Shown here piece by piece: positions 49,187 to 64,000 of a DNA stretch of 64,000 nucleotides (the stretch's first letter is position 1; every line of letters starts with the position of its first letter). The position numbers and the translations under genes were made by a program. The DNA is taken from contig CAYFWU010000002.1 of the NCBI GenBank assembly GCA_964347025.1, forward strand, positions 5,187 through 69,186. Direction: 5' to 3'. The notes beneath the pieces are model-generated. The model did no database searches. It was not told where the DNA came from and was given only the letters and a program-made list of their open reading frames with translations. This DNA comes from an uncultured archaeon (GTDB taxonomy: Archaea; Aenigmatarchaeota; Aenigmatarchaeia; QMZP01; QMZT01).

Positions 49187-49213
49187 TTACCCAACCCTTT
49201 GAAGGCGAAAGCC

Positions 49214-49266: not shown

Positions 49267-49351
49267 CCCCATTAATTAATTATTGGTATGAATCCTATAT
49301 ATTTTTTATCTCTATATAACTTATAGTCTGTATCTGGAAAATGGTGTTAGA

Positions 49352-50062
49352 ATGCAGAAAGTAAAGAAAGATATTGTTTCCATTGTGATACCAACATACA
49401 ACGAGAGGGAGAACATCGAGGTGCTGATACCCAGAATTTTCGACGCCCTTGAAAAGAAAAAGGTAAAGGGAGAAGTGATAATAGTTGATGACAATTCTCC
49501 TGACAAGACAGGAATTGCGGCAGAGGGATTTAAAGAGAAGTACAGGGTCAATGTTATACACAGGAAGGCTAAACTTGATTTATCTTCAGCTGTCTTAGAA
49601 GGTTTTAAAATAGCGGAGGGAGAAATAATTGGAGTGATGGATGCTGATATTTCACACCCTCCTGAATCAATACCAAAACTGGCGAAACCAATATTCAAAG
49701 GAGAGGCTGATTTTGTTGTTGGCAGCAGATACATGGAAGGAGGGGAAATAAAGGATTGGCCATTAAGCAGGATTGTTATTTCGAAATTCGCTGGTTTTAT
49801 GGCGAGAGGTTTAACTAACATTAAAGATCCGATGTCAGGCTTCTATTTCTTTAAAAGAAAGGTCATAGAATCAGTTAACCTAAAAACAACCGGATATAAG
49901 ATAGGATTGGAAATTGTTGTCAAGGGAAGATACGGGAAGTTGAAGGAGATTCCTTATACCTTCACTCAGAGAAAAACTGGAGAAAGCAAATTTAGTTTCA
50001 AGGAAGTTTTAAATTATGTCACAAACCTTTTCAAATTGTACTGTTACAAGGTAAAGAAATGA
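49352..50062 (+). CDS. GT2 glycosyltransferase, dolichyl/polyprenyl-phosphate mannose (or hexose) synthase-like
   Basis: 236 aa. VSIVIPTYNERENI, IIVDDNSPDKTG, VMDADISHPPE, VVGSRY. Confidence 0.8.
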   Translation: MQKVKKDIVSIVIPTYNERENIEVLIPRIFDALEKKKVKGEVIIVDDNSPDKTGIAAEGFKEKYRVNVIHRKAKLDLSSAVLEGFKIAEGEIIGVMDADISHPPESIPKLAKPIFKGEADFVVGSRYMEGGEIKDWPLSRIVISKFAGFMARGLTNIKDPMSGFYFFKRKVIESVNLKTTGYKIGLEIVVKGRYGKLKEIPYTFTQRKTGESKFSFKEVLNYVTNLFKLYCYKVKK

Positions 50063-50443
50063 TCACTCGATATCCAACCACTGCTTTTTCATGGCAATAC
50101 TTTCCAGACAGGCTCCCTTCAAACCCTCTTCTAGTATGTCCTCACACATTCCCTCCTCCAGCGAAACCCTTGCTATACAGAAAATCCTTATATCCCGATC
50201 GTCTATCATTTCGCATAGTTCGAGGTCCGAGTTTATCTCAGCCACGTCGGAAAGACAGAAATCCCTATTCTCTGTTTTTTCACAGTCCCCAAGCTTAGGA
50301 TATTCAGGGTATGTAGAACTAAGGCTTTGTGGTTGCTGGGTTTCATGTTCTATCTCCCCTGTTGGGAGAGTGACCTCGAACGGTATGAATAGCACGACCA
50401 AGACGACAACAATCGCTATCAGGACATAGAGAAGGACCCTCAT
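50063..50443 (-). CDS. N-terminally anchored small Cys-repeat protein (hypothetical)
   Basis: 126 aa. TM VLLYVLIAIVVVLVVLFIPF, then four to five repeats of the form ...C(L/E/I)....A. Confidence 0.4.
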   Translation of the reverse strand: MRVLLYVLIAIVVVLVVLFIPFEVTLPTGEIEHETQQPQSLSSTYPEYPKLGDCEKTENRDFCLSDVAEINSDLELCEMIDDRDIRIFCIARVSLEEGMCEDILEEGLKGACLESIAMKKQWLDIE

Positions 50444-50495
50444 AATAAAAACAGTGTTAAATAAAAATAAATAACTTTGATTTTCAATCTATAAA

Positions 50496-51545
50496 ATGCT
50501 CAAACTCTTAAGACCTGTTTTGAGAACAAAGATAAACAGGAAATTCGATAGATTCAACCTACCCTACAAGGTAAATCTGCACATAACCTATTCTTGTAAT
50601 TCCAGATGCAAAACCTGTTTCATCTGGGAGAAATACAGGAAAAAACCTGAGCTGAAAGACAGGGAGTTAAAGACAGACCAATGGAAAAGGTTTTTTGAAA
50701 ATTTAGGCGACAGACTTTACTGGGTTTCAATAGGAGGTGGAGAACCTTTCATGAGGGATGATCTGGTGGGAATAGTCTCCTCCATGAATACAAAAAATTT
50801 ATGCGTACTGAGCATTAATACCAACGGCCAGCTGACAGAAAAAATATACAAAACAATGAAAGAATTGCTGGACATGATACCTGAGAATGTCAGGGTATTT
50901 CTTGCAGTGAGCCTTCTGGGTTATGAAGATACACACAACCTTGTTTCGGGAAAGGAAAACGCATTCAAAACTTCAGAAAAAACATACAAGAAGTTGGAAT
51001 CTTTACAAACAAAATATGAGAACCTTTACCTTGAAAGGGAACTCGTGGTTAACAAATACAATGTTAATGAGATGCACAAAATAGCGGAAAAACTCAATGA
51101 AGAAAAAATTCCCTTTACACTCACATTTTCACAGGAATCAGATTATTACGATAACATGGGAAAGAACGTTGGATTATCCTCAAAAGAAAGGAAATTGGTT
51201 GCTAATATCTTAAAGAACTTGCGAATCCCCAGATACCAACGTGTAGATATAATTAAAGAGGTGTTCAAGAAAACCGCGATTAAATTCTTCGAAAGCGGAG
51301 AAATTCCGAAATGCTATTCTTCATGGTGTTCTGTTAGGATAGATCCCTACGGAAACGTCCATCCATGTATCATGAGAAACGAGCTTATAGGTAACCTTGT
51401 CGAAAATGAGATGGACCTAGAGAAGACTATGCAGAGAAGCGAAAAACTCAAGAAAATACAGGAAGAGATAAAGAAGAAGGAATGTTCCTGCTGGACTCCC
51501 TGCGAGGGTTATCAGAGTATTGTTCAAAATCTATCGTTTTTATAG
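50496..51545 (+). CDS. Radical SAM enzyme with a SPASM/twitch-like C-terminal Cys cluster
   Basis: 349 aa. CNSRCKTC is the CxxxCxxC motif; the C-terminus has CYSSWCSVRIDPYGNVHPC...CSCWTPC. Confidence 0.8.
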   Translation: MLKLLRPVLRTKINRKFDRFNLPYKVNLHITYSCNSRCKTCFIWEKYRKKPELKDRELKTDQWKRFFENLGDRLYWVSIGGGEPFMRDDLVGIVSSMNTKNLCVLSINTNGQLTEKIYKTMKELLDMIPENVRVFLAVSLLGYEDTHNLVSGKENAFKTSEKTYKKLESLQTKYENLYLERELVVNKYNVNEMHKIAEKLNEEKIPFTLTFSQESDYYDNMGKNVGLSSKERKLVANILKNLRIPRYQRVDIIKEVFKKTAIKFFESGEIPKCYSSWCSVRIDPYGNVHPCIMRNELIGNLVENEMDLEKTMQRSEKLKKIQEEIKKKECSCWTPCEGYQSIVQNLSFL

Positions 51546-51546
51546 T

Positions 51547-52878
51547 TCAGATTCTTAAAACTGTTTTCAGAAGCGTGACAAACATCTCGTAATCCCCTTT
51601 TTGTAAAAGGGTTTGTGTGTTTAAAATGTAGTTCAGGTAGTAGTATGTAAACCTCAGCTCGGTGTTTGAAACCCCTGAAAAGTTATGGTTTCTTGAAAAA
51701 TCGAATTCAATCCAGTCCTCTGTTGATTTCGGTTCAGAGAAGCCGTTTTTAACCAGGAAATTGTATAGGGAAGTTTCGGGATACGGCTGATAAAATCCTG
51801 CGTAGAGTACGCTCTTTAATCTCCTTGCAAGTTTTGCTGTTTGGGAGAGATCCTTCCTTGTTTCAGTCGGGATATCAAGCATGAAGGAAGCGACTGACCT
51901 CAAACCTATTTCATTGGAGAAGTCAAAAACGTCAATGATCTGTTTAACGCTGGTTCTTTTGTTTAGGAAATCCAGCATTCTCTGCGAACCGGATTCCACC
52001 CCGAAGAATATGTATTCGCAATCGTTTTTCTTGAATTCCTTAAGCATTTTTTTGTTAACATTGCTGACCCTAAACTGGCAGCCCCATCTTAAATCATGGC
52101 CTTTGAATAATCGAGACAATTGTATGGCTCTATCAGGATCGCTACCAATTAAATTATCCTCATAGTCTACCTTCAGGGCCTCTATTTTTGGATAAGAATT
52201 CAAAAGGTTTTCAAGGTTCTCTCTTACTCTCTTCAAAGAATAAGGTCTCCACCCTTCACAGTAGAAAACCTTGTTGTAGCAGAAGTTACAATCGTAGGGG
52301 CAACCCCGGGAAGTAGGCAGAGCCATTGTCCTAAAGCCCCCAATCCATTTGAAGGTATAATCCTTAACATCTATGATATCCCAGGGTATTGGGGACAGGG
52401 AATCGAGATTTTTGACAGGTTTTCCTGGAAGATTGGACCTTATCTTTCCATCATCCTTAAAAACTATGCCTTTCACCCTTTTCGGATTTTTCAGGTTGTT
52501 GATAAGATCACTGAAGATTAAATCTCCTTCCCCGGCAACAACGAAGTCCACGTAATCCTCTCTAATTACCTGATAAGGTAGGAGGGATGAATGAACGCCA
52601 CCCCACACCACTTTAGCCTGTGTGTTTTCCTTTGAGAATTTCGAAATTTCAACACAGGACTTCAGAGACTTTCCCGTCCAGCCAGTAAGCCCTATAACGT
52701 CGGGATCCGATTTCTTGATTTTCTTTTTAACCCGATCAATAGGAAGTTTATTGCAATCCAGGATTTCAACATCATTTCCCTCTTTCTCTGGGAGAGCCGC
52801 TACCTGAAGCAGACCCAAGGGTATTGAAGGAACCTTACCGGGAAATTTTGTTTCAGGATTTATGAGCAATATTTTCAT
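51547..52878 (-). CDS. B12-binding-domain radical SAM enzyme
   Basis: 443 aa. It has an N-terminal cobalamin-binding-like Rossmann domain (MKILLINPE...DVIGLTGWT) and TSRGCPYDCNFC. Confidence 0.8.
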   Translation of the reverse strand: MKILLINPETKFPGKVPSIPLGLLQVAALPEKEGNDVEILDCNKLPIDRVKKKIKKSDPDVIGLTGWTGKSLKSCVEISKFSKENTQAKVVWGGVHSSLLPYQVIREDYVDFVVAGEGDLIFSDLINNLKNPKRVKGIVFKDDGKIRSNLPGKPVKNLDSLSPIPWDIIDVKDYTFKWIGGFRTMALPTSRGCPYDCNFCYNKVFYCEGWRPYSLKRVRENLENLLNSYPKIEALKVDYEDNLIGSDPDRAIQLSRLFKGHDLRWGCQFRVSNVNKKMLKEFKKNDCEYIFFGVESGSQRMLDFLNKRTSVKQIIDVFDFSNEIGLRSVASFMLDIPTETRKDLSQTAKLARRLKSVLYAGFYQPYPETSLYNFLVKNGFSEPKSTEDWIEFDFSRNHNFSGVSNTELRFTYYYLNYILNTQTLLQKGDYEMFVTLLKTVLRI

Positions 52879-53938
52879 GCTTCCTCCTCAGCAGGGAATC
52901 AAATGCTATGTTCAACTCTTCCTGACAGTTCCATACACATTTCTCACAATCCAGCAAACTAGAACGTAGAGTTTCATATGAATCCGAATACCACAAATCC
53001 TTAATATCGTTATTACGTATATTTCCTATTTTATTTCCAAGCCAAAACATTCCATAACATGGATACAAATCTCCGTTTGAATCAATCGACAACGTTAAAA
53101 AACCAGCTCCACAGGCTCTTGACCTCTTCCCATTAAGAATAAAATTTTTGATCGTTTTAAGATATTTTTCAGTGTTGTCTATGATTCCTTCCTCTCTTTT
53201 TATTTTTATCGTCTTATTGATAATTTCATTGATCTGATCTTTTTGCTTTTCAGAGAAATACAAGGATTTTTTCCCAATGAAATTATGCACTGGTATGAAA
53301 CCTATTTTTTTAACTCCTAGGCCGTTTAAGAAATCAACTGTCTCCAGAACCCTGCTTGAGGTCTGAGGAGATATCAGGATATTCACTGTTATCTTCGACT
53401 TTTTGTTTGAAACATTCAACAAATTTTTGATTCCCAAGACCACTTTCTTATGAACACCTCTTCCTCCCCTCAAATTATCGAATATCTTGGGATCATCCGA
53501 ATCCAGGGAAACAGATATCGTATCAACTCCTGTGTTAACCAATTTTTTGGCCATCTTTTTTGTTATCAAGGTTCCGTTGGTGGATATGTCAAGGAGCATA
53601 CCCTTGCGCTTTACGTAAGTCATGATATCGAGTATATCCTCCCTTATTAAAGGTTCCCCCCCGGATACGGATAAGGTTGTTACTCCAAGTTCAGCAAGAT
53701 CATCAATAAGTTTGAGTATCTCTCCCTTTGACATTTCTTTGTTTTCTGATTCCCACAAATTACACATTTCACACCTGAGATTACACCTTCTGGTGATGAT
53801 CAAGGTTGTGAACAAAGGTGGGTGTTTTATTCTCCACCCTCTCAGGTAAAGATAAACACGTATAAAATTAAGAAATTTTTTAAAACCTTTGGTATGGAAA
53901 AAATCCCCCCACACATAACTTTTGTATTTTTCCCTCAT
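52853..53938 (-). CDS. Radical SAM enzyme with a SPASM-like C-terminal domain
   Basis: 361 aa. RRCNLRCEMC; C-terminal CGAGFLTLSIDSNGDLYPC...CEKCVWNC. Confidence 0.8.
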   Translation of the reverse strand: MREKYKSYVWGDFFHTKGFKKFLNFIRVYLYLRGWRIKHPPLFTTLIITRRCNLRCEMCNLWESENKEMSKGEILKLIDDLAELGVTTLSVSGGEPLIREDILDIMTYVKRKGMLLDISTNGTLITKKMAKKLVNTGVDTISVSLDSDDPKIFDNLRGGRGVHKKVVLGIKNLLNVSNKKSKITVNILISPQTSSRVLETVDFLNGLGVKKIGFIPVHNFIGKKSLYFSEKQKDQINEIINKTIKIKREEGIIDNTEKYLKTIKNFILNGKRSRACGAGFLTLSIDSNGDLYPCYGMFWLGNKIGNIRNNDIKDLWYSDSYETLRSSLLDCEKCVWNCQEELNIAFDSLLRRKHENIAHKS

Positions 53939-53939
53939 C

Positions 53940-55502
53940 TCAATCCTCAGTTTTATAGAGTGAAACGCATACCTTGCTTTCCAAAATCTTCAATTTACGT
54001 TCCTTTTCGAGCTGTTCGAAAACAGGTCTTCCATGCCCGAAAAACGTGGTGCCGCACATTGTATGGTTTATATATAAGTAATATATTTCTTCCCCACTTT
54101 CGCATCCTGATAAAGATGTACTTAGGTGTTTATCGGGGAGCAGTATTTCCATAACCATTTCAGGATTACACATACAAAAATTTGATTGGGAGTCCTCGAT
54201 AAGCAAACAGTCTTTATCCTTAACGTAACTTCCAAAATGTATTATATCATCAATAAGACAATCATGTTTTTCAAAGGCAAAAACATTTGTGCCCGAATAG
54301 AAAAGGAATAATATTAAAATAAGTACCGCAAAAACACCCGTGGTTCTAACCACGTACGGTATCCTTAGTGAAGACTTGTTCTCCGTAATCCACTCAATCA
54401 AATCCTTTGCCTTGAAAATACCATAACCCATTAAGATCGCTATCGATGGCTGCAGTGTTAACTGATAGACTTGAGGGCTGGTGTAGAGTGTCGCCCAGTA
54501 GAGACCGTAAAATAGGAAAAATAATATTATCCAGGAAATCGGGAAGATTAAATTGCGTTCCTTCAAGACAAAAAGAAGTGAAAATAAAAGGAAAAAATAG
54601 AGAATTGTTGGATAAAAACTCGGGTGTGCCAAATTTGAAGAAAGATGATACTGTATGTTTGGTATAAGATAACTCAATGAGAATGTGTAAGGACGCTCCT
54701 CATAGTGCGGATCCCTTACCGGACCATAGATATCGTCACCTGTTATATAATAATAGCTTACAGGTATCATGAAAATCAGGAATATAACCAAAGGGATTTT
54801 CAATTTTTCTATCTTTAATTTGTCTCTGTAGAGAATAAACCCTATGATGAACAAGGGTACGAATATGGAATTGTCTGTTCTTACATGGAGGGAGAACACC
54901 AAAAGGAGGAAAGATAGGAGGTAAACACCCCTCTTCTCAAGCCTGAGTGAGATTAGGAAAACAAGGATTGTTAACGTGACGAAAAAAACAGAGGTTATTT
55001 CACTTATATTGAACTTTGCGTATATGACAGACATGGGAAAAAGAGAGTATATCATGGAGGAGAACAAAGCCACATCATCCCTCTTGAACAGAATGTATGC
55101 AAGAAGGAAAACTATGAAAATTGTTAGTGAGCTAAAAACCAAATTCAGGTAAAAAATCGTATTGTAGTTTGAACCGAACAAAAAGAAACCTGTGGCTATC
55201 AGGAACGAATATCCCTTGGGATGCCAGAAATCCTCCACCCCCCGACCTTCCAGCATGTTAACTGAGGTTTTTACATAATCCCAGCACAAACCATCATAGG
55301 AGCCGCATGTAGGGGAGGCAAATCTCAGATAAGAGCCAAGAATAAAAATTAAGATGAATGCTATCCAGACATGTATTTTAATTTTTTTGAAGAGAGAGAC
55401 TATATACCTTATATTCAATAGAAATAGCACGCAAATTAAAACGAAGTTGATAAGCAGTATGTAAATCAAATTGTAGGAAAGGAAGGACTGAAAATCAAAC
55501 AT
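53940..55502 (-). CDS. Polytopic GT-C-type glycosyltransferase (ArnT/PMT, GT39/GT83-like)
   Basis: 520 aa with more than 10 predicted TM helices and a C-terminal soluble domain of about 100 aa. It belongs to a family of three paralogues in this island. Confidence 0.55.
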   Translation of the reverse strand: MFDFQSFLSYNLIYILLINFVLICVLFLLNIRYIVSLFKKIKIHVWIAFILIFILGSYLRFASPTCGSYDGLCWDYVKTSVNMLEGRGVEDFWHPKGYSFLIATGFFLFGSNYNTIFYLNLVFSSLTIFIVFLLAYILFKRDDVALFSSMIYSLFPMSVIYAKFNISEITSVFFVTLTILVFLISLRLEKRGVYLLSFLLLVFSLHVRTDNSIFVPLFIIGFILYRDKLKIEKLKIPLVIFLIFMIPVSYYYITGDDIYGPVRDPHYEERPYTFSLSYLIPNIQYHLSSNLAHPSFYPTILYFFLLFSLLFVLKERNLIFPISWIILFFLFYGLYWATLYTSPQVYQLTLQPSIAILMGYGIFKAKDLIEWITENKSSLRIPYVVRTTGVFAVLILILFLFYSGTNVFAFEKHDCLIDDIIHFGSYVKDKDCLLIEDSQSNFCMCNPEMVMEILLPDKHLSTSLSGCESGEEIYYLYINHTMCGTTFFGHGRPVFEQLEKERKLKILESKVCVSLYKTED

Positions 55503-55543
55503 CTAAACACCAATATTCTTTTAAAGATGTTAGGAATTAAAAG

Positions 55544-55969
55544 TTAGTAGTTCATCTCTATTTTATCACTAATCCGGTTCATCTTGCTGTTGTAACATTC
55601 TCTCGAGCAACACCATTCCAGAGAGAAACTACGAATATCAACATCGCTTTCGCACGGAACAAGTTTCAATACCCCCGTCTTTCTGCTATTGAGAGGTTCA
55701 TTTACAGTGTAATCAGCCGGCAGACTCACATTAGTCTTGACCCCAAATGGAACCACGATCTTTATGCTCGTTATATCCTGCTGGTTTGGGTTGTAAAAAG
55801 GAACCATCAAATACCCATCAACGCATTTCCCATTTCCATATTCTATTGCACACTCAGGATTGTAAAAAGTAAAATAATCCTCCCAATACATCCTTGCTAA
55901 CGAGATAATAACCACAACTATCACTATGAAAAGAAAAAGCTTCTTTTTTCCTCTTTCTTGAATTTTCAT
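55544..55969 (-). CDS. N-terminally anchored small Cys-containing protein (hypothetical)
   Basis: 141 aa. TM LFLFIVIVVVIISLA, with 7 Cys in the ectodomain. Confidence 0.4.
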   Translation of the reverse strand: MKIQERGKKKLFLFIVIVVVIISLARMYWEDYFTFYNPECAIEYGNGKCVDGYLMVPFYNPNQQDITSIKIVVPFGVKTNVSLPADYTVNEPLNSRKTGVLKLVPCESDVDIRSFSLEWCCSRECYNSKMNRISDKIEMNY

Positions 55970-55988
55970 TTACTCCGACCCTGAGTAT

Positions 55989-57644: not shown

Positions 57645-57685
57645 TCAGTAAGTTTTTGAATCCAAATTTTAAAAACAAATGCCGA

Positions 57686-59026
57686 TCAGGATACCACGAA
57701 TCTTAATCCCCGAAGTCCCCTTTTAAAATCACCGAATGATGTTATTTTTCTTAACTGATTGAGGATGTAGCCAGCTCTCAGGTAATACCTTCTGTACAGT
57801 TCCTTCTGGATTTCCTTAAGATCACTTTCCGTGAATTTACAAAACCCTTTCTGCCCCCTTCCGTGCATTTCCGAACCCGGGTATATCGTTATCGGATTGA
57901 ACTGAACGTAGTCCGGTTTCAACATTTCCATCAATCTTAAAGTTTTTTCTATGGAACCTCTGGTTTCTCCCGGAGACCCTATAATTAAATAAGAGAGTAT
58001 TTTTATCCCTACCCGTTTTGTCATTTCAAAAGCCTTCCTCGTTTCATATGAGTTCATATTCTTTTTTATGTTGTTTAAGATTTTTTGATCACCGCTTTCA
58101 GCTCCGTAGGCTATTACTGAACAACCTGCTTTCTTCATTTTTTCCAGCAAATTTTTATCAACCAGATCAACCCTCGTCGCGCAAACCCATTTTATGTCGA
58201 AATTTTCCTTAATGATGATATCGCATATTTTTTCGGTTCTCTTCTTGTTTACCGTGAAGTTATCATCGTAGAAGACAATGTTTTTTAACTTTTGTGCATC
58301 TACAACTTCCCTGAGTTCATTAAACGCATTTTCAACACTTCTTTCCCTGTAAGGGCCATAAACACTCCTCGAGCAGTAAACACATTCGTAAGGGCAGCCC
58401 CTGGCGGTAAGAAATGTAGTCATCGGCCTGTCTATCAGTACGTGGTTGTACATGTTCGTTTCTAACAATTCACGTGATGGGAACGGGATGGAATCAAGAT
58501 TTTTAGTGAAGTAAGGCTTGTTTACGTGTATCTTGTTCTTTATCCTTAAACCAAGACCTTTCATGAGTTTTAATTTTTTTTCATTCCCAAGATTTTCAAT
58601 AAGATTTTTGAAAACAATTTCCTGATCACCTCTTACAACGAAATCCATATATTCTAGAACGCGTTCAGGAAACACGCTAGCAAATGGCCCGCCAGCAACT
58701 GTTATAACATCTTTTTCTGTCGATTTTAGTTTACTAAAAAAGGATTTTGTCCAAAGTTCGAAGTCTCCCATTACGAAGTCGCAGTAATTGTTTGGGATAA
58801 CTCCGACAACGTCCGGTTTGCTTTCTTTTACCTTCTCTACGCAGTCTTCTATTTCAATTTCTTTCGCGTAACAGTCTATTATTTCAATGTCGGCCATTCC
58901 CTTTAGCGAGGAGGCGATGTACGCAAGGTTCAAGGGAGGAGGCACGAATAATTTCTTGTATCCGTCTAACTTGCCCCACCCTGGATTTATCAGACAAACC
59001 TTAATCTTATCACCTTCGAAAACCAC
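57686..59026 (-). CDS. B12-binding-domain radical SAM enzyme
   Basis: 446 aa. It has an N-terminal B12-binding-like domain and ARGCPYECVYC. It is a paralogue of 51547-52878. Confidence 0.8.
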   Translation of the reverse strand: MVFEGDKIKVCLINPGWGKLDGYKKLFVPPPLNLAYIASSLKGMADIEIIDCYAKEIEIEDCVEKVKESKPDVVGVIPNNYCDFVMGDFELWTKSFFSKLKSTEKDVITVAGGPFASVFPERVLEYMDFVVRGDQEIVFKNLIENLGNEKKLKLMKGLGLRIKNKIHVNKPYFTKNLDSIPFPSRELLETNMYNHVLIDRPMTTFLTARGCPYECVYCSRSVYGPYRERSVENAFNELREVVDAQKLKNIVFYDDNFTVNKKRTEKICDIIIKENFDIKWVCATRVDLVDKNLLEKMKKAGCSVIAYGAESGDQKILNNIKKNMNSYETRKAFEMTKRVGIKILSYLIIGSPGETRGSIEKTLRLMEMLKPDYVQFNPITIYPGSEMHGRGQKGFCKFTESDLKEIQKELYRRYYLRAGYILNQLRKITSFGDFKRGLRGLRFVVS

Positions 59027-59104
59027 ATAAAAATTTAATGAAAATTAAATTTAAAAACCCAAACAAAGGGAAATTCTATTTAAAATTACCAAGAAATTAT
59101 AAAC

Positions 59105-59809
59105 ATGAAAAAATACGAGATTTCTTTTCTAATACCTGCATTCAATGAGGAAATGAACATAAAAAAAGTTTTAGGAGACATAGATTCTGTATCACGTTTT
59201 TTGGGACTCAGGAAATACGAAATGATCGTTGTAAACGATGGTAGCACTGATAACACGAAGATAATTCTGGAATCTCTGCAAAAGAAATTTAATGTTATTA
59301 AAATCATAAATTTTGAAAAGAACAGGGGTTATGCTGACGCCTTTAAAGAGGGCTTCCGAGTTGCGAAATGCCCTCTGATCTTTTGCACCGATGCCGATGG
59401 GCAATGCAACATAAAGGAACTGAAATCTCTTCTGAACGTGATGGAAAAATATAATTGCGACCTTGTTTTCGGTTACAGAAATAAAAGGAAAGATTCGGTC
59501 GGGAGGATTCTAATCAGCTATGTATTCAACAGACTTTCCAACAATTTATTCAGTTTGAATTTGAGGGACATAAATTGCCCGTTCAAACTTTTTAAAAAAA
59601 GAGTACTTGATAATATTCAAATAAAATCAAAAGGGTTTTTGGTTGACCTTGAATTGGCAACAAAGGCAAAGAAATATGGATTTGTCATAAAACAAACCCC
59701 AGTTACGCACTACCCAAGACGAGCAGGTAAATCAAAGTTTAGATTAAGAACGATATTTGAAACGTTTTATGGTATGTTAAAATTGAGAAAGGAACTAGGA
59801 AGTTTGTAG
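59105..59809 (+). CDS. GT2 glycosyltransferase
   Basis: 234 aa. ISFLIPAFNEEMNI, VVNDGSTDNT, CTDADGQ. Confidence 0.8.
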   Translation: MKKYEISFLIPAFNEEMNIKKVLGDIDSVSRFLGLRKYEMIVVNDGSTDNTKIILESLQKKFNVIKIINFEKNRGYADAFKEGFRVAKCPLIFCTDADGQCNIKELKSLLNVMEKYNCDLVFGYRNKRKDSVGRILISYVFNRLSNNLFSLNLRDINCPFKLFKKRVLDNIQIKSKGFLVDLELATKAKKYGFVIKQTPVTHYPRRAGKSKFRLRTIFETFYGMLKLRKELGSL

Positions 59810-59818
59810 GACGATAAC

Positions 59819-61504
59819 ATGATATTCTACGAATCACCAGTATTGGAAGTTTTAAAGGGGTTTCTGACGTACGGCATGTTACCGATACTCGTGATTCATA
59901 TAGCACTGATAGTGTTGCTTCTTTACATTTGCAGAGATGATCTCAAAAAAAACATAAGGCTGGACAAAAGAGATCTGGTCTACATTTTTATAATTTTCGT
60001 TCTTTTTGCCTCTTCTATTTTTTATCTGGCGGAAAACAACAGAATATGTCTGGAGTTTCAGGACCAGGGATGGTATTCACTCAAAATAGCAAAGATAATG
60101 GCCAGAACCGGAAGATATCAAAGTTCTGAATTTTCAGTTAATGGTCTCGGTGAGAACCCCGAATGCGCTATTTATGGTTTTCCTTCAAGAATGGAAGGAA
60201 CGCCCTTCGTATTCTTAATTGCATTCTTGTTGATAGGTCCCAATGTTTACATAAACCTCTGGATTAATCTGATATTTTCACTCTTGTTTTTGATAACAAC
60301 CTACATTTTGATGTCATTCTTAACTAAAAACAAAGAAATAGGTTTGATAACTTCGATAACATTTTTAATTTCTCCGCTGTTTTTGGTATATTCACTTTCC
60401 CACGAAAACATGATATCTTTATTTTTCCTTTCCCTCTCACTGCTTTTCATTCTGATTTCGTTTAGGATAAACAAATTATACTCTTACATGCTCACATTTC
60501 TGATAATTGGCTTCGCTGCAAGAATCAGGCCGGAGAACACAGTTCTTTTTGCCATCTTCTTCATACTGGTTTTTGCTTTCAAAAGGAAACTTTTCAAGAA
60601 TAAAATTTTCATAAAAAACATTTCCTTTGCCCTCGTTCTGGCTTTGATATTGGGAGTATCATTCGTTATGCATGTAATATTTATCCCGAGATTCTGGGGA
60701 ATAGAATTCATGGGACCGGAATACGAAGGGATTCACCCATTCGCGACTGGAACATTCTTAGAAAATCTTATTGGACACTCTTCTACCTTTTTGGAATTTA
60801 ACGGCGAGGTGATAATGATTCTTTTGGTTATAGGGTTTGTATACAGCCTTTCTAAACATAGAAAAGTACTTTTACTCTTAATACCATCCATGATACCATA
60901 TGTCCTCGTTTATTTTTTCTATGCTCACGGAGGATATAACTATACATACCACCTGAACTTTTTCCTGATACCAATAGCCGGAATGGGAATCTATCTGCTC
61001 TATGAACTGATAAAATTACCCTCAAAACATATACCTCTAAAGAAGGATTTCATTTTACCCGTAATATTCTCGATAGTGGTATTTTTGCTGTTATTTACAG
61101 TGAGCATCTCCCGGATAAATTCATGCAAAATTGGGACAGTCGAATTTCTTGATGGGATGAATGAAGTTTCAGGAAAGTTCAGAAAGAACGACATCATAGT
61201 AACAGGGAGGGACGATTTTGCAAGTGTTTTGAATTACTTAACAGAAAGCTGTGTTATATACACGGCCTTCACAACCGATGGTATAATTATCAAGCAATAT
61301 GAAAGGGAAGAATGGGGTATTATAGAGAACTTTATAGCAAACAATGAAAACAGGGTCCTTTATTTCATGCCAAAGGAGGACGTAACCACAAACTATTACT
61401 ATTACGAGGGAATGCTCGGTAAACTCTCGCAAGTTTTTGATCTCGAAATCATATTCGAGAATGATGTTTCGAAGGTCTATGAGATCAGGAATAAACAAAG
61501 CTAA
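59819..61504 (+). CDS. Polytopic GT-C-type glycosyltransferase (ArnT/PMT-like)
   Basis: 561 aa, multi-TM, with a C-terminal soluble domain. It begins 9 bp after the stop of the upstream GT2 gene. Confidence 0.55.
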   Translation: MIFYESPVLEVLKGFLTYGMLPILVIHIALIVLLLYICRDDLKKNIRLDKRDLVYIFIIFVLFASSIFYLAENNRICLEFQDQGWYSLKIAKIMARTGRYQSSEFSVNGLGENPECAIYGFPSRMEGTPFVFLIAFLLIGPNVYINLWINLIFSLLFLITTYILMSFLTKNKEIGLITSITFLISPLFLVYSLSHENMISLFFLSLSLLFILISFRINKLYSYMLTFLIIGFAARIRPENTVLFAIFFILVFAFKRKLFKNKIFIKNISFALVLALILGVSFVMHVIFIPRFWGIEFMGPEYEGIHPFATGTFLENLIGHSSTFLEFNGEVIMILLVIGFVYSLSKHRKVLLLLIPSMIPYVLVYFFYAHGGYNYTYHLNFFLIPIAGMGIYLLYELIKLPSKHIPLKKDFILPVIFSIVVFLLLFTVSISRINSCKIGTVEFLDGMNEVSGKFRKNDIIVTGRDDFASVLNYLTESCVIYTAFTTDGIIIKQYEREEWGIIENFIANNENRVLYFMPKEDVTTNYYYYEGMLGKLSQVFDLEIIFENDVSKVYEIRNKQS

Positions 61505-61543
61505 AAGATTAAAGTTTTTAAATCATTTATTGATTGTGGTTGA

Positions 61544-62482
61544 ATGAAAACACTCGTTACAGGAGGAGCGGGATTCATAGGCTCTCATTTAGTTGATGAG
61601 CTGATCAAGAGAGGTTATTCTGTCAGGGTTCTGGATAACTTGAGTTCTGGGAAGAAAGAGTTTATTGAACATCACTTCAACAATCCTAATTTTGAATTCC
61701 ATAAAGTTGATCTCTCGGATGGTAATATAGATAAATATTTTCATGGAATAGATAGGGTTTTCCATTTGGCGGCCAACCCAAAGGTTAGAATAGGGGCTGA
61801 AAAAACAAGAATAGACTTGGAACAAAATATCTTGGCTACGCATAACGTTTTGGAAGCCATGAGGAAGCAGAGGGTTAAATCCATTTTTTTCACGTCGTCA
61901 TCAACTGTTTACGGTGAAACGAAAAAACTGCCAACAGAAGAGAACCACTCGCCTCTGCAACCAATTTCTTTGTACGGTGCCTCTAAGCTGGCTTGTGAAG
62001 CCCTCATTTCCGCATACTGTCACACCTTTGGTATGAATTCTGTTGTGTTTAGATTGGCGAATGTTATAGGGAAAAGAAGTACGCACGGTGTTGTTTACAA
62101 CTTTACCAACAGGTTGAGAGAGAATCCAAATGAACTTAAAATTCTCGGAAACGGCCTGCAGAGTAAATCATACATCTACATAACTGATTGCATAGAAGGG
62201 ATGATACTAGCTGCAGACCAAGCAAAAAAACCATTCGAAATTTTTAACATAGGTTCCGAAGATCAGGTTACTGTGAAAAGGATAGCTGAACTCATCTCGG
62301 GAGAGATGGGAATAAAACCGGATTTTAAATTTGCCGGAGGAGAGAGGGGGTGGAGAGGCGATATACCCGTAATGCTTCTGGATGTTTCAAAGATTAGGAA
62401 ATTCGGATGGAGATCCAAACACAACTCCGAAGAGGCTGTTAAAAAGACAACAAAGGATTTGCTTAACAATTTCAAAGCTTGA
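61544..62482 (+). CDS. NAD-dependent nucleotide-sugar epimerase/dehydratase (SDR)
   Basis: 312 aa. It has the TGGAGFIGSHL Rossmann motif and the catalytic YGASK. Confidence 0.85.
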   Translation: MKTLVTGGAGFIGSHLVDELIKRGYSVRVLDNLSSGKKEFIEHHFNNPNFEFHKVDLSDGNIDKYFHGIDRVFHLAANPKVRIGAEKTRIDLEQNILATHNVLEAMRKQRVKSIFFTSSSTVYGETKKLPTEENHSPLQPISLYGASKLACEALISAYCHTFGMNSVVFRLANVIGKRSTHGVVYNFTNRLRENPNELKILGNGLQSKSYIYITDCIEGMILAADQAKKPFEIFNIGSEDQVTVKRIAELISGEMGIKPDFKFAGGERGWRGDIPVMLLDVSKIRKFGWRSKHNSEEAVKKTTKDLLNNFKA

Positions 62483-62489
62483 TGATGTT

Positions 62490-63584
62490 ATGATATTGAA
62501 AAATACAGCTCAGTTTTTCAACATCCTTTTTTCAAAGTCTTTAGGATTCAGGCCTAAAGGCCCCTTGTTTCTTTATTTAGAGGTCACCAGGAAGTGCAAC
62601 CTAAAATGTGAATTCTGCAACATATGGATGGTTAAGAAGAAGGATCCAAAAATGATGAATAAGGAGATGAGAACAGACGAGATATTAAATATAATAGGAG
62701 ATGCGAAGGAAATGGGGGTCGAGGTTGTGGATATAGACGGAGGGGAACCCCTGCTGAGGAAGGATATTTATGAAATAATAAGCGAAGTTGAGAAACAGGG
62801 AATGAAGGCTGTTCTTGCCACGAATGGAACACTGATAACAGAAAAAATAGCGAAAAAATTAATTGATTCTGGTTTGGCCTCTGTGCTGGTCTCTCTGGAT
62901 GCTCCCACATCTGAAAGGCATGATAAAGTGAGGGGGGTGAAGGGCTCATTCAGAAGGGCGGTCAGTGGCATAAAAATTCTGAGAAAGGTAGGCAGGGATA
63001 AAATAAAGATAGGCATAAATTCTCTGATCACAAGGGAAAACATTGATCTTGTGAAGATGGCCAAGTTCGCTAAATCAATTGGGGTTGACGGTATAAGGTT
63101 CCTTCCCTACCATTTAATTTACCCTCACAATATCTACTCATTACAGAACAAAGAACTTTTCATCAGAAAAGAAGATGATATCAAGAGATTGGAGAAGGAA
63201 ATAGAGGACTTGTTGAAATTTATTCCTGAAACAGGAATGTACACAAATTCCGCCCCATTTCTGAGGGGAATTTCTGATTACTTCAGAGGGAAGAGCGAAG
63301 TGGGGAAATGCTATGCAGGTTATCTATATTGTGATATAAATTGCTACGGTGATCTGATGCCATGCCTGATAAGGGAAAAAACCGTGAACGTACGAAATTC
63401 CTCATTCAAGGATATCTGGGATTCGGAGGAGTTTGAAAAAATAAGAAAAGAAATATCGAAAACCGCATGCAAGAACTGCTGGCATTCCTGTTATATAGAA
63501 CCAAACATAAGGATGTCACCCTTTTATATAATGAAAAACTGGAGAACTGTTTATCAGGAGATCAGATCGTACCTGAACGTTTAG
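62490..63584 (+). CDS. Radical SAM enzyme with a SPASM-like C-terminal domain
   Basis: The track ORF starts at 62382 inside the epimerase gene; I prefer the ATG at 62490 (MILKNTAQFF). RKCNLKCEFC; C-terminal CYAGYLYCDINCYGDLMPC...CKNCWHSC. Confidence 0.8.
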   Translation: MILKNTAQFFNILFSKSLGFRPKGPLFLYLEVTRKCNLKCEFCNIWMVKKKDPKMMNKEMRTDEILNIIGDAKEMGVEVVDIDGGEPLLRKDIYEIISEVEKQGMKAVLATNGTLITEKIAKKLIDSGLASVLVSLDAPTSERHDKVRGVKGSFRRAVSGIKILRKVGRDKIKIGINSLITRENIDLVKMAKFAKSIGVDGIRFLPYHLIYPHNIYSLQNKELFIRKEDDIKRLEKEIEDLLKFIPETGMYTNSAPFLRGISDYFRGKSEVGKCYAGYLYCDINCYGDLMPCLIREKTVNVRNSSFKDIWDSEEFEKIRKEISKTACKNCWHSCYIEPNIRMSPFYIMKNWRTVYQEIRSYLNV

Positions 63585-63591
63585 CTGGATA

Positions 63592-64000
63592 TCAACTACC
63601 AATTGTAACTTCAAGTTTAATTCTGATTATCTCAAAAAACTGTGAAAGACTGTCCCTGAAGAGATTCATCTTCGTTTCCTTTCCCTCTTTCCATTTGACG
63701 GCAATTTCCTTTATGCTGTAACCTTTATTTTTTGCCCTTACCAAAAATTCGAGATCCCAGCTCCATTCACTGTTTCTTATTTGTTTGTTTAGGTTCACGA
63801 ATACCTTCCTTTTGAACCCCTTGAAACCGCACTCCGTATCTGTTAATCCCAGGCCAGGGAAAAACATTCTAACAAAAAAATGATAGATCTTGCTGAGTAA
63901 AAATCTTTTCAAGGTCCTGGAAGTTTCAGAGCTCTTCAAATATCTGGAACCTATAACCACATCATATTCCTCCAAAAACCTCATAACATCCTTTACATTT
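63592..64000 (-). CDS. GT2 glycosyltransferase, N-terminus outside the window
   Basis: The frame stays open upstream of the Met at 63984 (...NVKDVMRFLEEYDVVIGSRY...). DVVIGSRY and TDTECGFKGF are typical of the GT2 C-terminal half. Confidence 0.7.
   Translation of the reverse strand, partial: NVKDVMRFLEEYDVVIGSRYLKSSETSRTLKRFLLSKIYHFFVRMFFPGLGLTDTECGFKGFKRKVFVNLNKQIRNSEWSWDLEFLVRAKNKGYSIKEIAVKWKEGKETKMNLFRDSLSQFFEIIRIKLEVTIGS

Follow-up and report, generated by a model that had tools for sequence, protein, structure and literature searches.

A candidate multi-cassette locus for extracytoplasmic glycosylation with radical SAM enzymes in a member of Candidatus Aenigmarchaeota

In three-component glycosylation systems, lipid-linked sugars are epimerised ahead of their transfer by a GT-C enzyme (PMC11127046). 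Remodelling of a lipid-attached hexose has also been proposed for HpnI (a GT2) acting with HpnJ (a B12-binding radical SAM enzyme, B12-rSAM), and for calditol synthase (PMC13459092). The archaeal island described here would share its logic with archaeal AglD/AglS and with the three-component systems of bacteria. It differs from a three-component system in being a multi-cassette version, in which radical SAM (rSAM) enzymes would remodel the sugar before GT-C transfer. The reading that we favour, with a probability of about 0.55, is a multi-cassette extracytoplasmic glycosylation locus with rSAM tailoring enzymes inside the cassettes. No description of its GT2/B12-rSAM/GT-C core module was found in the literature searched.

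The host is a tiny, symbiotic-type archaeon of the Aenigmarchaeota (DPANN). The source contig, 107 kb long, belongs to a Candidatus Aenigmarchaeota MAG, in keeping with the archaeal assignment in an earlier, sequence-only reading of the window (the whole stretch of 64,000 nucleotides that was analysed). Positions 49352-64000 form a low-GC block, as that reading had proposed: GC is 0.36-0.39 in the island and 0.43-0.48 upstream, and the island lies 6-10 points below its flanks. The gene inventory given there was recovered in full at the same coordinates: three Dpm1/ArnC-type GT2s, three GT-Cs, two B12-domain rSAMs, three SPASM/twitch rSAMs, one SDR epimerase/dehydratase, and two small anchored proteins with six Cys each. 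The endpoint at 64000 was too short, however. The low GC carries on past the end of the window, and the island reaches at least the window-equivalent position 73584 (at least 9.6 kb further). Two further rSAM genes lie in the additional stretch, one for the third B12-rSAM and one for the fourth non-B12 rSAM, along with genes for two more PMT_2 proteins, a DegT aminotransferase, a second SDR, and an FAD oxidoreductase. These bring the whole known island to at least five GT-C and at least seven rSAM genes. Within the window, five of 14 adjacent genes encode rSAMs; if rSAMs make up roughly 1% of genes, we roughly estimate this density to be far above chance.

Two compact operons are found in the block. 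The minus-strand operon has six genes (B12-GTC-small-GTC-SPASM-B12) and the plus-strand operon has four (GT2-GTC-SDR-SPASM); gaps between genes are at most 41 bp in both. They diverge from an A/T-rich intergenic region of 78 bp (59027..59104), which on reading of the sequence is a putative promoter region. The paralogs diverged long ago, with identities of 25-26% within GT-C pairs, 31% between the two B12 enzymes, and 25-36% within the SPASM set. None of the GT2, GT-C, and rSAM genes tested in the window reaches an NCBIfam family cut-off, and all family scores fall far short of the curated thresholds.

The closest solved relatives of GT2a and GT2b are polyprenyl-phosphate monosaccharide synthases, which bears out the Dpm1-like label that had been applied to GT2a. 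GT2a (49352..50062, plus strand; 236 aa) carries a catalytic domain like that of dolichyl-phosphate hexose synthases (Dpm1/DPMS type; PF00535, 5e-33) and lacks a TM domain. Its best PDB match is 5mlz, the Dol-P-Man synthase of P. furiosus (5e-60, residues 9-231), followed by ArnC, while its top NCBIfam matches are PgfS, AglJ, and ArnC, all under cut-off. GT2b (59105..59809, plus strand; 234 aa; PF00535, 1.5e-29) opens the plus-strand operon and is also of the polyprenyl-phosphate sugar synthase type, matching DPMS (1e-16), ArnC (4e-15), and a GtrB-like protein (2e-9) in the PDB. The call of a third GT2 at 63592 holds as to family, but only the C-terminal part of this minus-strand gene (63592..64000) lies in the window, from which the gene runs out. 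The complete gene for GT2c, found on L003 at 11103-11801, encodes 232 aa, with 28% identity to each of the other two GT2s.

Are the polytopic membrane proteins really GT-C enzymes? They are paralogous, as had been suggested, and the fold was recovered by AlphaFold2 and Foldseek for the 551-aa and 561-aa proteins. The 551-aa protein (55989..57644, minus strand; PMT_2 2.6e-12) was modelled with a pLDDT of 84.6 and a pTM of 0.88, and its top 37 Foldseek matches in the PDB are all GT-C enzymes, including STT3, PglB, AglB, ArnT, DPY19, AftB, ALG9, and PMT. Its first extracytoplasmic loop carries a D69-E70 motif, of which D69 is invariant in the alignment, and its C-terminal alpha/beta domain contains Cys. 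The divergent 561-aa protein (59819..61504, plus strand) has no Pfam match; BLASTP links it to its two paralogs (1e-10 and 2e-7) and to a PMT_2 protein from CPR (1e-19). The top 22 Foldseek matches of its model (pLDDT 74.9, pTM 0.81) are again all GT-C enzymes, among them PglB (1.9e-6) and ArnT (4.8e-6, target-normalised TM-score 0.52), and its D82 is kept in at least 90% of 30 homologs. The 520-aa protein (53940..55502, minus strand; about nine TM segments) is classed as a GT-C from its PMT_2 match (7.5e-10); it keeps the Asp that corresponds to D69 in the alignment with the 551-aa protein. The conserved Asp lies in the loop that follows the second N-terminal helix. Since this loop comes after a K/R-rich cytoplasmic loop, the catalytic Asp is predicted by the positive-inside rule to face outward. 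A WWD(YG) motif is absent from the three window GT-Cs, as noted before, and from the two just past the window.

The remaining genes of the block include the SDR nucleotide-sugar epimerase/dehydratase (61544..62482, plus strand; 312 aa), which matches Epimerase (1.8e-54) and GDP_Man_Dehyd (1.9e-50) in Pfam and, under cut-off, GalE, RmlB, and LegB in NCBIfam. The two small proteins each have one N-terminal hydrophobic segment and six Cys, as first described, with no Pfam or NCBIfam match. In the 126-aa protein (50063..50443, minus strand) the six Cys form three C-x(9-12)-C repeats. The 141-aa protein (55544..55969, minus strand) is encoded between two GT-C genes, and a related contig encodes a 59% identical ortholog at the equivalent position, but no homologs were detected in 80 cross-phylum loci.

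The rSAM enzymes were not placed in any well-characterised family: none reaches the cut-off of any curated one. The B12-binding 446-aa enzyme (57686..59026, minus strand; Radical_SAM 3e-25, B12-binding 3e-14) opens the minus-strand operon; its best NCBIfam match is HpnJ (164 bits against a cut-off of 578) and its best PDB match is AprD4 (4.6e-25). The 443-aa enzyme (51547..52878, minus strand; B12-binding 1.6e-17, Radical_SAM 8.6e-16), 31% identical to it, closes that operon and is nearest in NCBIfam to BchE and HpnJ, far under cut-off. The nearest characterised relatives of the B12-rSAMs are a functional mixture: AprD4 dehydrates a sugar, QCMT methylates a protein, OxsB contracts a ring, and HpnJ and BchE are also among them. 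The analogy once drawn with the C-methylases GenK and Fom3 is not preferred to others. The best solved relatives of the SPASM/twitch enzymes include the peptide maturase SuiB, MoaA, and BlsE. The 361-aa enzyme (52853..53938, minus strand; Radical_SAM 2.3e-26, SPASM 2.2e-9) matches SuiB and MoaA best, and its C-terminal Cys 276/294/331/334 fall in invariant Cys columns (alignments A5/A6). The 364-aa enzyme (62490..63584, plus strand; Radical_SAM 2.4e-28, SPASM 8.6e-9), whose start agrees with the public gene call, is closest to the cytosylglucuronate decarboxylase BlsE (4.7e-15), then to MoaA. The 349-aa enzyme (50496..51545, plus strand; Radical_SAM 1e-11) has CxxxCxxC at C34/C38/C41 and a marginal SPASM/twitch C-terminus (22.5 bits, cut-off 21.5), and is 25% identical to the other two.

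Do these genes keep company in other genomes? Two related contigs, L005 and L094, retain blocks of the island. The first keeps the order B12 (72%)-GTC (43%) ... SPASM (40%)-GTC-small (59%)-GTC (79%), with an extra cassette inserted in the block; here the ortholog of the 446-aa B12-rSAM lies beside a GT-C ortholog, the SPASM ortholog is that of the 361-aa enzyme, and the 79% match is a fragment of an ortholog of the 520-aa GT-C. The second keeps SDR-FAD-rSAM-GTC (72%)-B12-PMT-carbamoyltransferase. Gene order is mosaic across relatives.

A wider survey covered 80 GTDB species loci from Bacteria and Archaea, anchored on relatives of the B12-rSAMs. A Dpm1-like GT2 was present in 34 of these, adjacent to a B12-rSAM gene (gap <400 bp) in 19; GT2 genes numbered 11.9 per 100 kb at distances up to 1.5 kb from the anchor and 0.5-3.2 further out. 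Loci anchored on SPASM enzymes served as the control, and the comparison was limited to loci of at least 6 kb. GT2s were found in 32/69 B12-anchored and 6/42 SPASM-anchored loci (p = 5e-4), and GT-Cs in 12/69 and 0/42, respectively (p = 3e-3). Only 12 of the 80 B12-anchored loci carry a GT-C of the present type. GT2 adjacency rises with similarity to the 446-aa enzyme, from 3/36 in the bottom quartile to 17/35 in the top quartile, and a GT2 adjoins 9 of its 12 closest GTDB relatives. Operons of GT2 and B12-rSAM, some with GT-C, recur in DPANN, CPR, Acidobacteriota, Planctomycetota, PVC-group bacteria, and Gammaproteobacteria; many B12-anchored loci are co-directional GT2-rSAM-GT-C operons, with compact examples in Acidobacteriota (GT2-B12-carbamoyltransferase-GT-C) and a PVC-group bacterium (GT2-B12-GTC). 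The association of B12-rSAM, GT2, and GT-C is specific and cross-phylum. The island is real. Its arrangement, which the earlier reading did not recognise as a pathway, is not peculiar to this genome, since such operons recur across phyla. A specific link to GT2 and GT-C genes across genomes is seen only for the B12 enzymes; relatives of the SPASM enzymes, whose tie to glycans is weak, lack it.

The island adjoins surface-protein genes, which had been described as rich in sequons. This is true of a 1400-aa protein (110 N-x-S/T observed, about 31 expected) and a 1399-aa protein (43 observed, 23.5 expected), but the adjacent 695-aa protein has 9 where 7 are expected, so it shows no enrichment. 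A secreted protein with 6.5% Cys adjoins the island. The minus-strand block of surface-protein genes begins with a gene, also called on the source contig, for an 83-aa winged-helix regulator (48935..49186, minus strand; weak HTH_11, TrmB, and MarR matches in Pfam), taken here as context only. This gene does diverge from GT2a, as claimed, across 165 bp (49187..49351). This region, read from sequence, contains the palindrome ACATTAATGT, the repeated element GACAT..GACTAACA, and TATA-like A/T boxes of putative function about 30-55 bp upstream of the GT2a start. Co-regulation of the island with the surface genes is a guess.

Could the end product be a lipid? In a scheme modelled on what has been proposed for calditol synthase and, in the case of bacteriohopanetetrol cyclitol ether, for HpnI/HpnJ, the GT2s would attach a hexose to a membrane lipid, which could be dolichol or host-derived archaeol/GDGT. 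The B12-rSAMs would then make a carbocyclic or otherwise altered head group, and the GT-Cs would extend or move these lipids. Two of the three B12-rSAMs indeed have HpnJ as their top NCBIfam match, at 164 and 188 bits, although these scores are below one third of the 578-bit cut-off. The adjacency of GT2 and B12-rSAM resembles hpnI-hpnJ (PMC13459092); however, the GT2s look like DPMS, ArnC, and GtrB, and HpnI is absent from their NCBIfam matches. An FAD protein resembling HpnE/phytoene desaturase and an rSAM whose tail weakly matches DUF3463 (HpnH-type) are encoded just past the window, and the tetraether synthase Tes is among the weak rSAM matches. At least five GT-Cs, each with a conserved catalytic Asp, fit such a product poorly, and the SDR, DegT, and the carbamoyltransferases of related operons indicate glycan sugars. 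A lipid end product is unlikely.

SPASM rSAMs are typically peptide maturases, and in a RiPP-like alternative the SPASM/twitch enzymes would cross-link or modify the 126-aa, 141-aa, or Cys-rich 695-aa proteins, which the GT-Cs would glycosylate outside. The maturases WgkB, PapB, StsB, SuiB, and SkfB do occur among the NCBIfam/PDB matches, but all maturase scores are far under cut-off. Consistent with this idea are the two 6-Cys proteins, the retention of one beside GT-Cs in a relative, the adjoining 6.5%-Cys secreted protein, and SPASM relatives elsewhere that have no tie to GT2 or GT-C. Both small proteins, however, are membrane-anchored, are 126-141 aa long, and lack a leader/core layout; the 141-aa protein has no homologs in the cross-phylum loci that share the module; and the short gaps leave no space inside the operons for unannotated precursor genes. 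The link between B12-rSAM and GT2 would also be left unexplained, and we consider peptide maturation improbable. Slightly less probable again is loose accretion, by which a horizontally acquired, fast-shuffling surface-variation region would have gathered glycosylation genes and unrelated rSAM genes (with cofactor, tRNA, or lipid functions) that form no single pathway. The GC difference, the mosaic gene order, and the tandem arrays of rSAM paralogs without GT genes in L023, L028, L060, L099, and L106 are as accretion would predict. By contrast, rSAM and GT-C genes are interleaved in tight operons, orthologous rSAM/GT-C pairs persist in relatives at 40-79% identity, and the adjacency of B12-rSAM and GT2 is statistically specific across phyla.

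For the favoured glycosylation locus, we infer substrates, rSAM chemistry, order of steps, and acceptor as follows; any role for the small Cys proteins would be conjectural. The SDR epimerase/dehydratase would make nucleotide sugars in the cytoplasm, with contributions from DegT and the second SDR past the window. The soluble Dpm1/ArnC-type GT2s would charge dolichyl phosphate with monosaccharides. Remodelling of the sugar, either lipid-carried or nucleotide-linked, would fall to the B12-domain rSAMs and probably also to the twitch/SPASM enzymes; the reaction could be deoxygenation, ring contraction, oxidation/epimerisation, or C-methylation. The visible island contains no flippase candidate, and a transporter encoded outside it would flip the product. 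Each GT-C paralog, through its conserved Asp, would then deliver the sugar to one specific acceptor at the surface. Possible acceptors are glycans or Ser/Thr of the many surface proteins whose genes lie close by, or else a different polymer of the envelope; protein O-glycosylation is a guess, and extension of N-glycans is equally possible. As GT-C genes outnumber GT2 genes in the known stretch (five against three), the cassettes would not be strictly one-to-one. The presence of many old paralogs side by side suggests several donor/acceptor pairs, and hence that this tiny archaeon may build a diversified surface glycan coat.

The low-GC gene block that begins at window position 49352 continues beyond the end of the window. 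Sequence past position 64000 was read on contig WVXR01000359.1 (107,161 bp; GCA_011773405.1; Candidatus Aenigmarchaeota, DPANN), which extends 36.7 kb beyond the window end and whose record coordinate equals 100726 - w for a window position w. The claim that this is an A/T-rich island was borne out: GC content is 0.43-0.48 upstream and 0.36-0.39 from about 50 kb onward, and the low GC persists to at least window-equivalent 73.5 kb. All genes named in the sequence-only reading were recovered by ORF listing and Pfam, with four qualifications: the 561-aa GT-C protein, the 349-aa radical SAM (rSAM) enzyme, the GT2 at 63592 and the extent of the island. The GT2 reported as a gene within the window at 63592 is the tail (63592-64000, minus strand) of a 232-aa gene running off the window. 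Five rSAM and three GT-C genes are indeed present in the window, but this is not the whole arrangement, since the known part of the island holds at least five GT-C, seven rSAM, three GT2, two SDR and one aminotransferase genes.

Two tightly packed operons diverge from a 78-bp A/T-rich spacer. The minus-strand operon, running from 59026 to 51547, encodes a B12-rSAM (an rSAM with a B12-binding domain; 446 aa, 57686-59026), a GT-C (551 aa, 55989-57644), a 141-aa protein, another GT-C (520 aa, 53940-55502), a SPASM rSAM (361 aa, 52853-53938) and a second B12-rSAM (443 aa, 51547-52878). The plus-strand operon (59105 to 63584) consists of a GT2 (GT2b, 59105-59809), a GT-C (561 aa, 59819-61504), an SDR and a SPASM rSAM (364 aa, 62490-63584). 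Past the window follow, in order, a DegT/PseC/ArnB-like aminotransferase, a third B12-rSAM (460 aa), a PMT_2 protein (572 aa), a second SDR (305 aa), an FAD oxidoreductase (435 aa), a fourth non-B12 rSAM (371 aa) and a further PMT_2 protein (576 aa). The FAD oxidoreductase passes the cut-off set for NF005560, an NCBIfam model that carries the name 'hypothetical protein'; its likeness to HpnE and to phytoene desaturases is weak. In all-against-all BLASTP the paralogs share 25-26% identity among the GT-Cs (E 1e-7 to 1e-22), 29-31% among the B12-rSAMs, 25-36% among the SPASM rSAMs and 28-30% among the GT2s; the island paralogs are old and not the products of recent duplication.

What are the GT2 enzymes likely to make? 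GT2a (49352-50062, plus strand) matches the catalytic domain of the dolichol-monophosphate mannose synthase (DPMS) of Pyrococcus furiosus (PDB 5mlz) at 5e-60, and GT2b matches DPMS (1e-16), ArnC (4e-15) and the GtrB-like sll0501 (2e-9). Because of these matches, both are of the polyprenyl-phosphate monosaccharide synthase type, with the activity itself predicted; neither has a predicted TM helix. PgfS is the top NCBIfam match for both, at 74-80 bits against a 500-bit cut-off, and the similarity to AglJ (6e-21) is also far under cut-off. No NCBIfam match reaches its cut-off for any of the GT2, GT-C or rSAM proteins of the window.

The assignment of the polytopic proteins to the GT-C fold has held up. 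Since a PDB sequence search with the 551-aa protein gave no match at an E-value of 1 or better, its fold was examined by modelling. In its AlphaFold2 model (pLDDT 84.6, pTM 0.88), the top 37 Foldseek PDB matches are all GT-C enzymes: STT3, PglB and AglB at about 1e-7, then ArnT, DPY19, AftB, ALG9 and Pmt4. The likeness to STT3 and PglB is at the level of fold only (TM-score about 0.5, 12-14% identity). For the 561-aa protein (pTM 0.81), which has no Pfam match, the top 22 Foldseek matches are likewise all GT-C enzymes, with a target-normalised TM-score of 0.52 against ArnT. The 520-aa protein is grouped with them through BLAST homology and its PMT_2 match. PMT_2, a broad family that includes ArnT-like enzymes, exceeds its cut-off in two of the proteins, at 39.7 bits (520 aa) and 47.7 bits (551 aa), and PF02366 (PMT) falls under its own (21.7 vs 22.7).

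True PMTs (PMT/GT39) have a luminal MIR domain and a DE motif. The MIR domain is absent from every GT-C paralog scanned with Pfam, and of the three window proteins just the 551-aa one has a D-E pair, with D alone in the 520-aa protein and D-Q in the 561-aa protein. As the sequence-only reading had noted for three proteins, the WWDYG motif, which lies in the C-terminal domain of AglB/STT3/PglB oligosaccharyltransferases, is missing; this extends to all five paralogs, including the two past the window, none of which has a WWD-type motif. The Pfam scans gave no STT3 match. In the 551-aa GT-C, D69, within 'LHDEYSF', is invariant in alignments of 10 and of 24 sequences, and D82 of the 561-aa GT-C is conserved in at least 90% of 30 homologs. 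D69 opens the helix that comes next after TM helix 40-59, and a K/R-rich loop lies upstream of it; because it follows this loop and helix, the positive-inside rule predicts that the conserved, putatively catalytic Asp of the first extracytoplasmic loop should face outward. An exhaustive HMMER profile search returned 898 representative GT-C clusters at E <=1e-30, the best 150 nearly all full-length. The subfamily is sizeable and uncharacterised, with its own Cys-containing C-terminal domain. Its apparent rarity in a word-indexed search (8, then 26 matches) was an artefact of sensitivity.

In the HMM classification none of the rSAM enzymes reached an NCBIfam cut-off, maturase families included. 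The 443-aa and 446-aa enzymes both score above cut-off for PF02310 and PF04055, and the cysteines C211/C215/C218 of CxxxCxxC are invariant. They carry the class B domain set, an N-terminal B12-binding Rossmann domain and a CxxxCxxC core, and may use cobalamin. HpnJ and BchE are the best NCBIfam families for the B12-rSAMs, but at 164.4, 129.8 and 187.8 bits against the HpnJ (TIGR03471) cut-off of 577.6 the three do not qualify as HpnJ equivalogs. The family profile, searched against solved structures, finds the aminoglycoside diol-dehydratase AprD4 first (9e-50). AprD4 is not known to use cobalamin, although its N-terminal domain is similar. It is followed by 9CCB, then by OxsB (ring contraction) and the methylase TokK. 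The 9CCB structure is QCMT, the methyl-coenzyme-M-reductase glutamine C-methyltransferase (PMC12931638), and the same review marks AprD4 as an 'unrelated' enzyme in its similarity network for radical SAM enzymes that depend on B12. Sugar-ring chemistry, considered on the strength of the AprD4 and OxsB likeness, was dropped because the second-best match is a protein methyltransferase; with relatives so mixed in function (AprD4, QCMT, OxsB, TokK), the chemistry of the B12-rSAMs cannot be read from the nearest structures.

The SPASM-like calls are clear for the 361-aa and 364-aa enzymes (PF13186, 37.9 and 36.0 bits) and marginal for the 349-aa enzyme at 50496-51545 (22.5 bits against a cut-off of 21.5). 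Solved relatives, at modest E-values, are BlsE (a sugar-nucleoside decarboxylase), MoaA, SuiB, PqqE and BtrN. Beyond CxxxCxxC, nine homologs share four invariant C-terminal cysteines, and the four closest ones have a fifth. With four or five invariant, the pattern suggests one auxiliary cluster (twitch-like), which would fit better than the full seven-Cys SPASM motif.

Does the association of these families recur elsewhere? In Falkowbacteria, a CPR bacterium, GT-C homologs lie next to rSAMs (two PMT_2 and six rSAM genes), and an Acidobacteriota MAG has a GT-C homolog in an operon whose four genes encode GT2, B12-rSAM, carbamoyltransferase and PMT_2; two further GT-C homologs have no adjacent rSAM. 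With the B12-rSAM alignment as anchor, 80 loci at 26-36% identity were obtained from GTDB species genomes, spread over many phyla of bacteria and archaea, and HMMs built from the island proteins were run against them. A Dpm1-like GT2 occurs in 34 of these loci, in 19 of them adjacent to a B12-rSAM gene (gap under 400 bp), and a GT-C of the island subfamily in 12. The loci also hold SPASM rSAM (14), SDR (13), DegT (6) and carbamoyltransferase (3) genes, and other polytopic proteins near the anchors include PMT_2 and YfhO members and several without a Pfam family. No GT2-rSAM or GT-C-rSAM fusion was found among the 80. Distance to the anchor served as an internal control: up to 1.5 kb from it there are 11.9 GT2 genes per 100 kb, and beyond that 0.5-3.2. 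Adjacency also follows similarity to the 446-aa enzyme: an adjacent GT2 is present in 9 of its 12 closest relatives, and in 17/35 of its top-quartile relatives against 3/36 of the bottom quartile.

The external control consisted of 80 metagenome loci anchored on SPASM rSAMs, the comparison being limited to loci of at least 6 kb. A GT2 was present in 32/69 B12-anchored and 6/42 SPASM-anchored loci (Fisher p = 5e-4) and a GT-C in 12/69 and 0/42 (p = 3e-3), values that are indicative only, since the sets come from different collections. Because SPASM relatives do not sit with GT2 or GT-C genes, the assignment of the SPASM enzymes to a glycan is weakened. Gene maps show co-directional modules in archaea (Iainarchaeum, Nanohalarchaeota, Nanoarchaeota and Pacearchaeota) and in bacteria (Portnoybacteria, Nealsonbacteria, a PVC-group bacterium, Planctomycetia, Gammaproteobacteria and Acidobacteriota). 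The Iainarchaeum set (L014) comprises GT-C, GT2, B12-rSAM and SPASM genes. Separately, tandem arrays of 5-8 same-family rSAM paralogs were seen for B12-rSAMs (loci L023, L028, L032, L047 and L060) and SPASM rSAMs (L099 and L106), some with no glycosyltransferase nearby. The Falkowbacteria locus L008 (Candidatus Falkowbacteria MFGB01000024.1) combines in one co-directional run an NRPS module, an aminotransferase, a phosphopantetheinyl transferase, a GT4, two PMT_2 GT-Cs, a methyltransferase and six small rSAM paralogs.

The context of the island is chromosomal, as indicated by housekeeping genes for a 1000-aa fused PurS-PurL FGAM synthase (8273-11275, minus strand) and a type IA topoisomerase (19136-21217, plus strand); Rfam found no RNA genes across the whole 64 kb. 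A NodU/CmcH-type carbamoyltransferase (561 aa, 4907-6592, plus strand; Carbam_trans_N 7e-91, Carbam_trans_C 7e-74) lies 45 kb from the island; this type also occurs inside GT2-B12 rSAM-GT-C operons of Acidobacteriota (L009, L081) and in a related island, L094. Two surface-type proteins of about 1400 aa are encoded at 23166-27368 and 42642-46841, both on the minus strand. One, with Big_9/cadherin-like repeats, has 110 N-x-S/T sequons where about 31 are expected, and the other, with YadA-head repeats, has 43 against 23.5; the two are candidate glycosylation targets. A 695-aa secreted protein next to the wHTH gene (46888-48975, minus strand) is 6.5% Cys, has no Pfam family and shows no sequon enrichment (9 vs 7 expected). 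The divergent spacer between the wHTH gene and GT2a (49187-49351) contains the palindrome ACATTAATGT, two copies of the element GACAT(C/T)A(G/A)TGACTAACA and two TATA-like boxes, which may be an operator and promoters.

Which known systems does the island resemble? Three-component systems include GtrB/GtrA/Gtr*, CsbB/GtcA/YfhO, and polyprenyl-phosphoribose synthase/MATE flippase/GT136 with an auxiliary epimerase; auxiliary enzymes of this kind can alter the lipid-linked sugar ahead of GT-C transfer (Kelly et al. 2024, PMC11127046). The island shares with them a GT2 of the polyprenyl-phosphate monosaccharide synthase type and a GT-C, here predicted to act outside the membrane. It differs in its archaeal host, in its five or more tandem GT-Cs, in the rSAMs, with and without a B12 domain, embedded in its operons, and in that no flippase was seen: no protein of GtrA, GtcA, MATE or Wzx type was found in the window, where at least three TM segments are predicted only for the three GT-Cs and for a 4-TM protein of 160 aa that lies at a distance of 36 kb. 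Since the host is an archaeon, the lipid carrier is presumably dolichyl phosphate.

In Haloferax volcanii AglD/AglR/AglS, a Dol-P-mannose synthase (GT2) and a PMT-like transferase extend a protein-bound N-glycan on the outer face of the membrane. This is an archaeal precedent for GT2 plus PMT-like transferase, and the island adjoins genes for sequon-rich surface proteins. The Agl pathway, in contrast, is not known to involve rSAM enzymes, and similarity to Agl23 (weak, 3e-5, far under the NCBIfam cut-off) and AglJ is the only likeness to named Agl proteins among those tested. Neighbourhoods of arCOG00563 PMT/STT3-like genes have been described (PMC5898192). In Streptococcus mutans, the Pgf system (PgfS GT2, PgfE epimerase, PgfM1/PgfM2 GT-C) O-glycosylates surface adhesins (PMC12041528). 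It resembles the island in combining GT2, SDR epimerase and GT-C proteins, and its genes lie beside those for the surface proteins they modify; however, the PgfM proteins are YfhO-type and the island GT-Cs PMT_2-type, Pgf lacks rSAMs, and PgfS scores far under cut-off. The logic of the Arn pathway for lipid A aminoarabinose (ArnB aminotransferase, ArnC GT2, ArnT GT-C) is repeated past the window by a GT2, a DegT aminotransferase (ArnB 4.8e-60) and a PMT_2 GT-C, and ArnT is among the best structural matches of the island GT-Cs. In contrast to Arn, scores are under the equivalog cut-offs, ArnA and ArnD are absent, and a B12-rSAM lies between aminotransferase and GT-C; the Arn pathway modifies lipid A, which archaea lack.

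The best-supported reading is that the island is a multi-cassette version of the GT2/flippase/GT-C logic known from Gtr, CsbB-YfhO, Arn, Pgf, the GT136 system and archaeal AglD/AglS, to which the rSAM enzymes would add a tailoring step. Such a step has precedents: auxiliary epimerases change a lipid-linked sugar ahead of its transfer by a GT-C (PMC11127046), and HpnJ and calditol synthase are rSAM enzymes with a proposed rearrangement of a hexose on a lipid (PMC13459092). A pathway for a glycolipid or cyclitol head group was scored lower. HpnJ, of the B12-domain rSAM type, and calditol synthase (Cds) are proposed to rearrange a lipid-bound hexose placed by a GT2 (PMC13459092). The island is like the hopanoid cyclitol ether enzymes HpnI/HpnK/HpnJ in pairing GT2 with a B12-domain rSAM, and HpnJ is the best curated match for two of its three B12-rSAMs. 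The HpnJ scores are nonetheless far under cut-off, the GT2s are Dpm1/ArnC-like and not HpnI-like, and the Hpn/Cds pathways have no role for GT-C transferases, of which the island has at least five. Also scored lower was peptide maturation, with the small Cys proteins as substrates. The only small genes of the island encode the 126-aa and 141-aa membrane-anchored proteins, each with six Cys; no RiPP precursor with leader and core was found near the rSAMs, and the two operons have no room for unannotated precursor genes because their gaps are 41 bp or less.

Is the island instead a loose accretion of unrelated genes, an explanation likewise scored below tailored glycosylation? Conservation in related MAGs was confirmed, with blocks retained in two related Aenigmarchaeota islands. 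The gene order of the first, L005 (ENA ERZ27248172 and GCA_964412565.1), is B12-rSAM (72% identical to the 446-aa enzyme), GT-C (43%), an extra inserted cassette of DUF2079, B12-rSAM, SPASM (40%) and GT-C (38%), a 140-aa small protein (59%) and a GT-C 79% identical to the 520-aa protein. The second, L094 from a JGI metagenome, has a GT-C 72% identical to the 576-aa paralog; here SDR-FAD-rSAM-GT-C is retained, together with additional genes for a B12-rSAM, a PMT protein, a carbamoyltransferase and further rSAMs. The island is thus kept block by block, with cassette content that is mosaic. The four-gene block SDR(305)-FAD oxidoreductase(435)-rSAM(371)-GT-C(576) is common to the continuation of our contig (L003, 16112-21095) and L094 (6631-11731). 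Adjoining a B12-rSAM in L094 (3475-5423) are a ferredoxin-like protein (DUF362/4Fe-4S) and a protein of 268 aa with 8 TM segments and no Pfam family, candidates for an rSAM electron donor and for a transporter or flippase, respectively; neither has a counterpart in the window.

The glycosylation reading has weak points of its own: no flippase is visible, GT-C and GT2 numbers are unequal, and the SPASM enzymes have no link to glycans outside such islands. Architecture, fold, conservation and association are established for the island, and we infer the pathway steps. Sequons for N-glycosylation abound in the surface proteins encoded nearby, and with this the extension of an N-glycan would fit at least as well as O-glycosylation. 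A broader proposal is tentative, with a probability of roughly 0.3: a widespread 'four-component' system, expanded in DPANN and CPR, in which B12-rSAMs would make deoxy, branched or ring-contracted (carbocyclic) sugars directly on polyprenyl or dolichyl phosphate and GT-Cs would install them on surface proteins or polymers. Here it could include enzymes of archaeal O-glycosylation, which to our knowledge are undefined so far. The literature searched, with partial coverage, on radical SAM with GT-C, three-component, polyprenyl, DPANN and Aenigmarchaeota does not describe rSAMs in GT2/GT-C systems. The GT2/GT-C logic is already known; rSAM enzymes within it seem to be new, a negative in partial literature and not proof.

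If the glycosylation reading is right, radical SAM chemistry would be routine in a widespread class of lipid-carrier-dependent surface glycosylation, and sugars not yet seen in prokaryotic glycans would be predicted. Compact operons, such as the Acidobacteriota GT2-B12 rSAM-carbamoyltransferase-GT-C, are testable and could be expressed in tractable hosts. The island would supply concrete candidate enzymes for archaeal extracytoplasmic glycosylation, O-glycosylation included, and a working hypothesis for two large uncharacterised groups, the GT-C subfamily (898 clusters at <=1e-30) and a clade of B12-domain rSAMs. DPANN and CPR organisms live attached to host cells, and a glycan coat diversified by tandem cassettes could bear on their host recognition and evasion of viruses.
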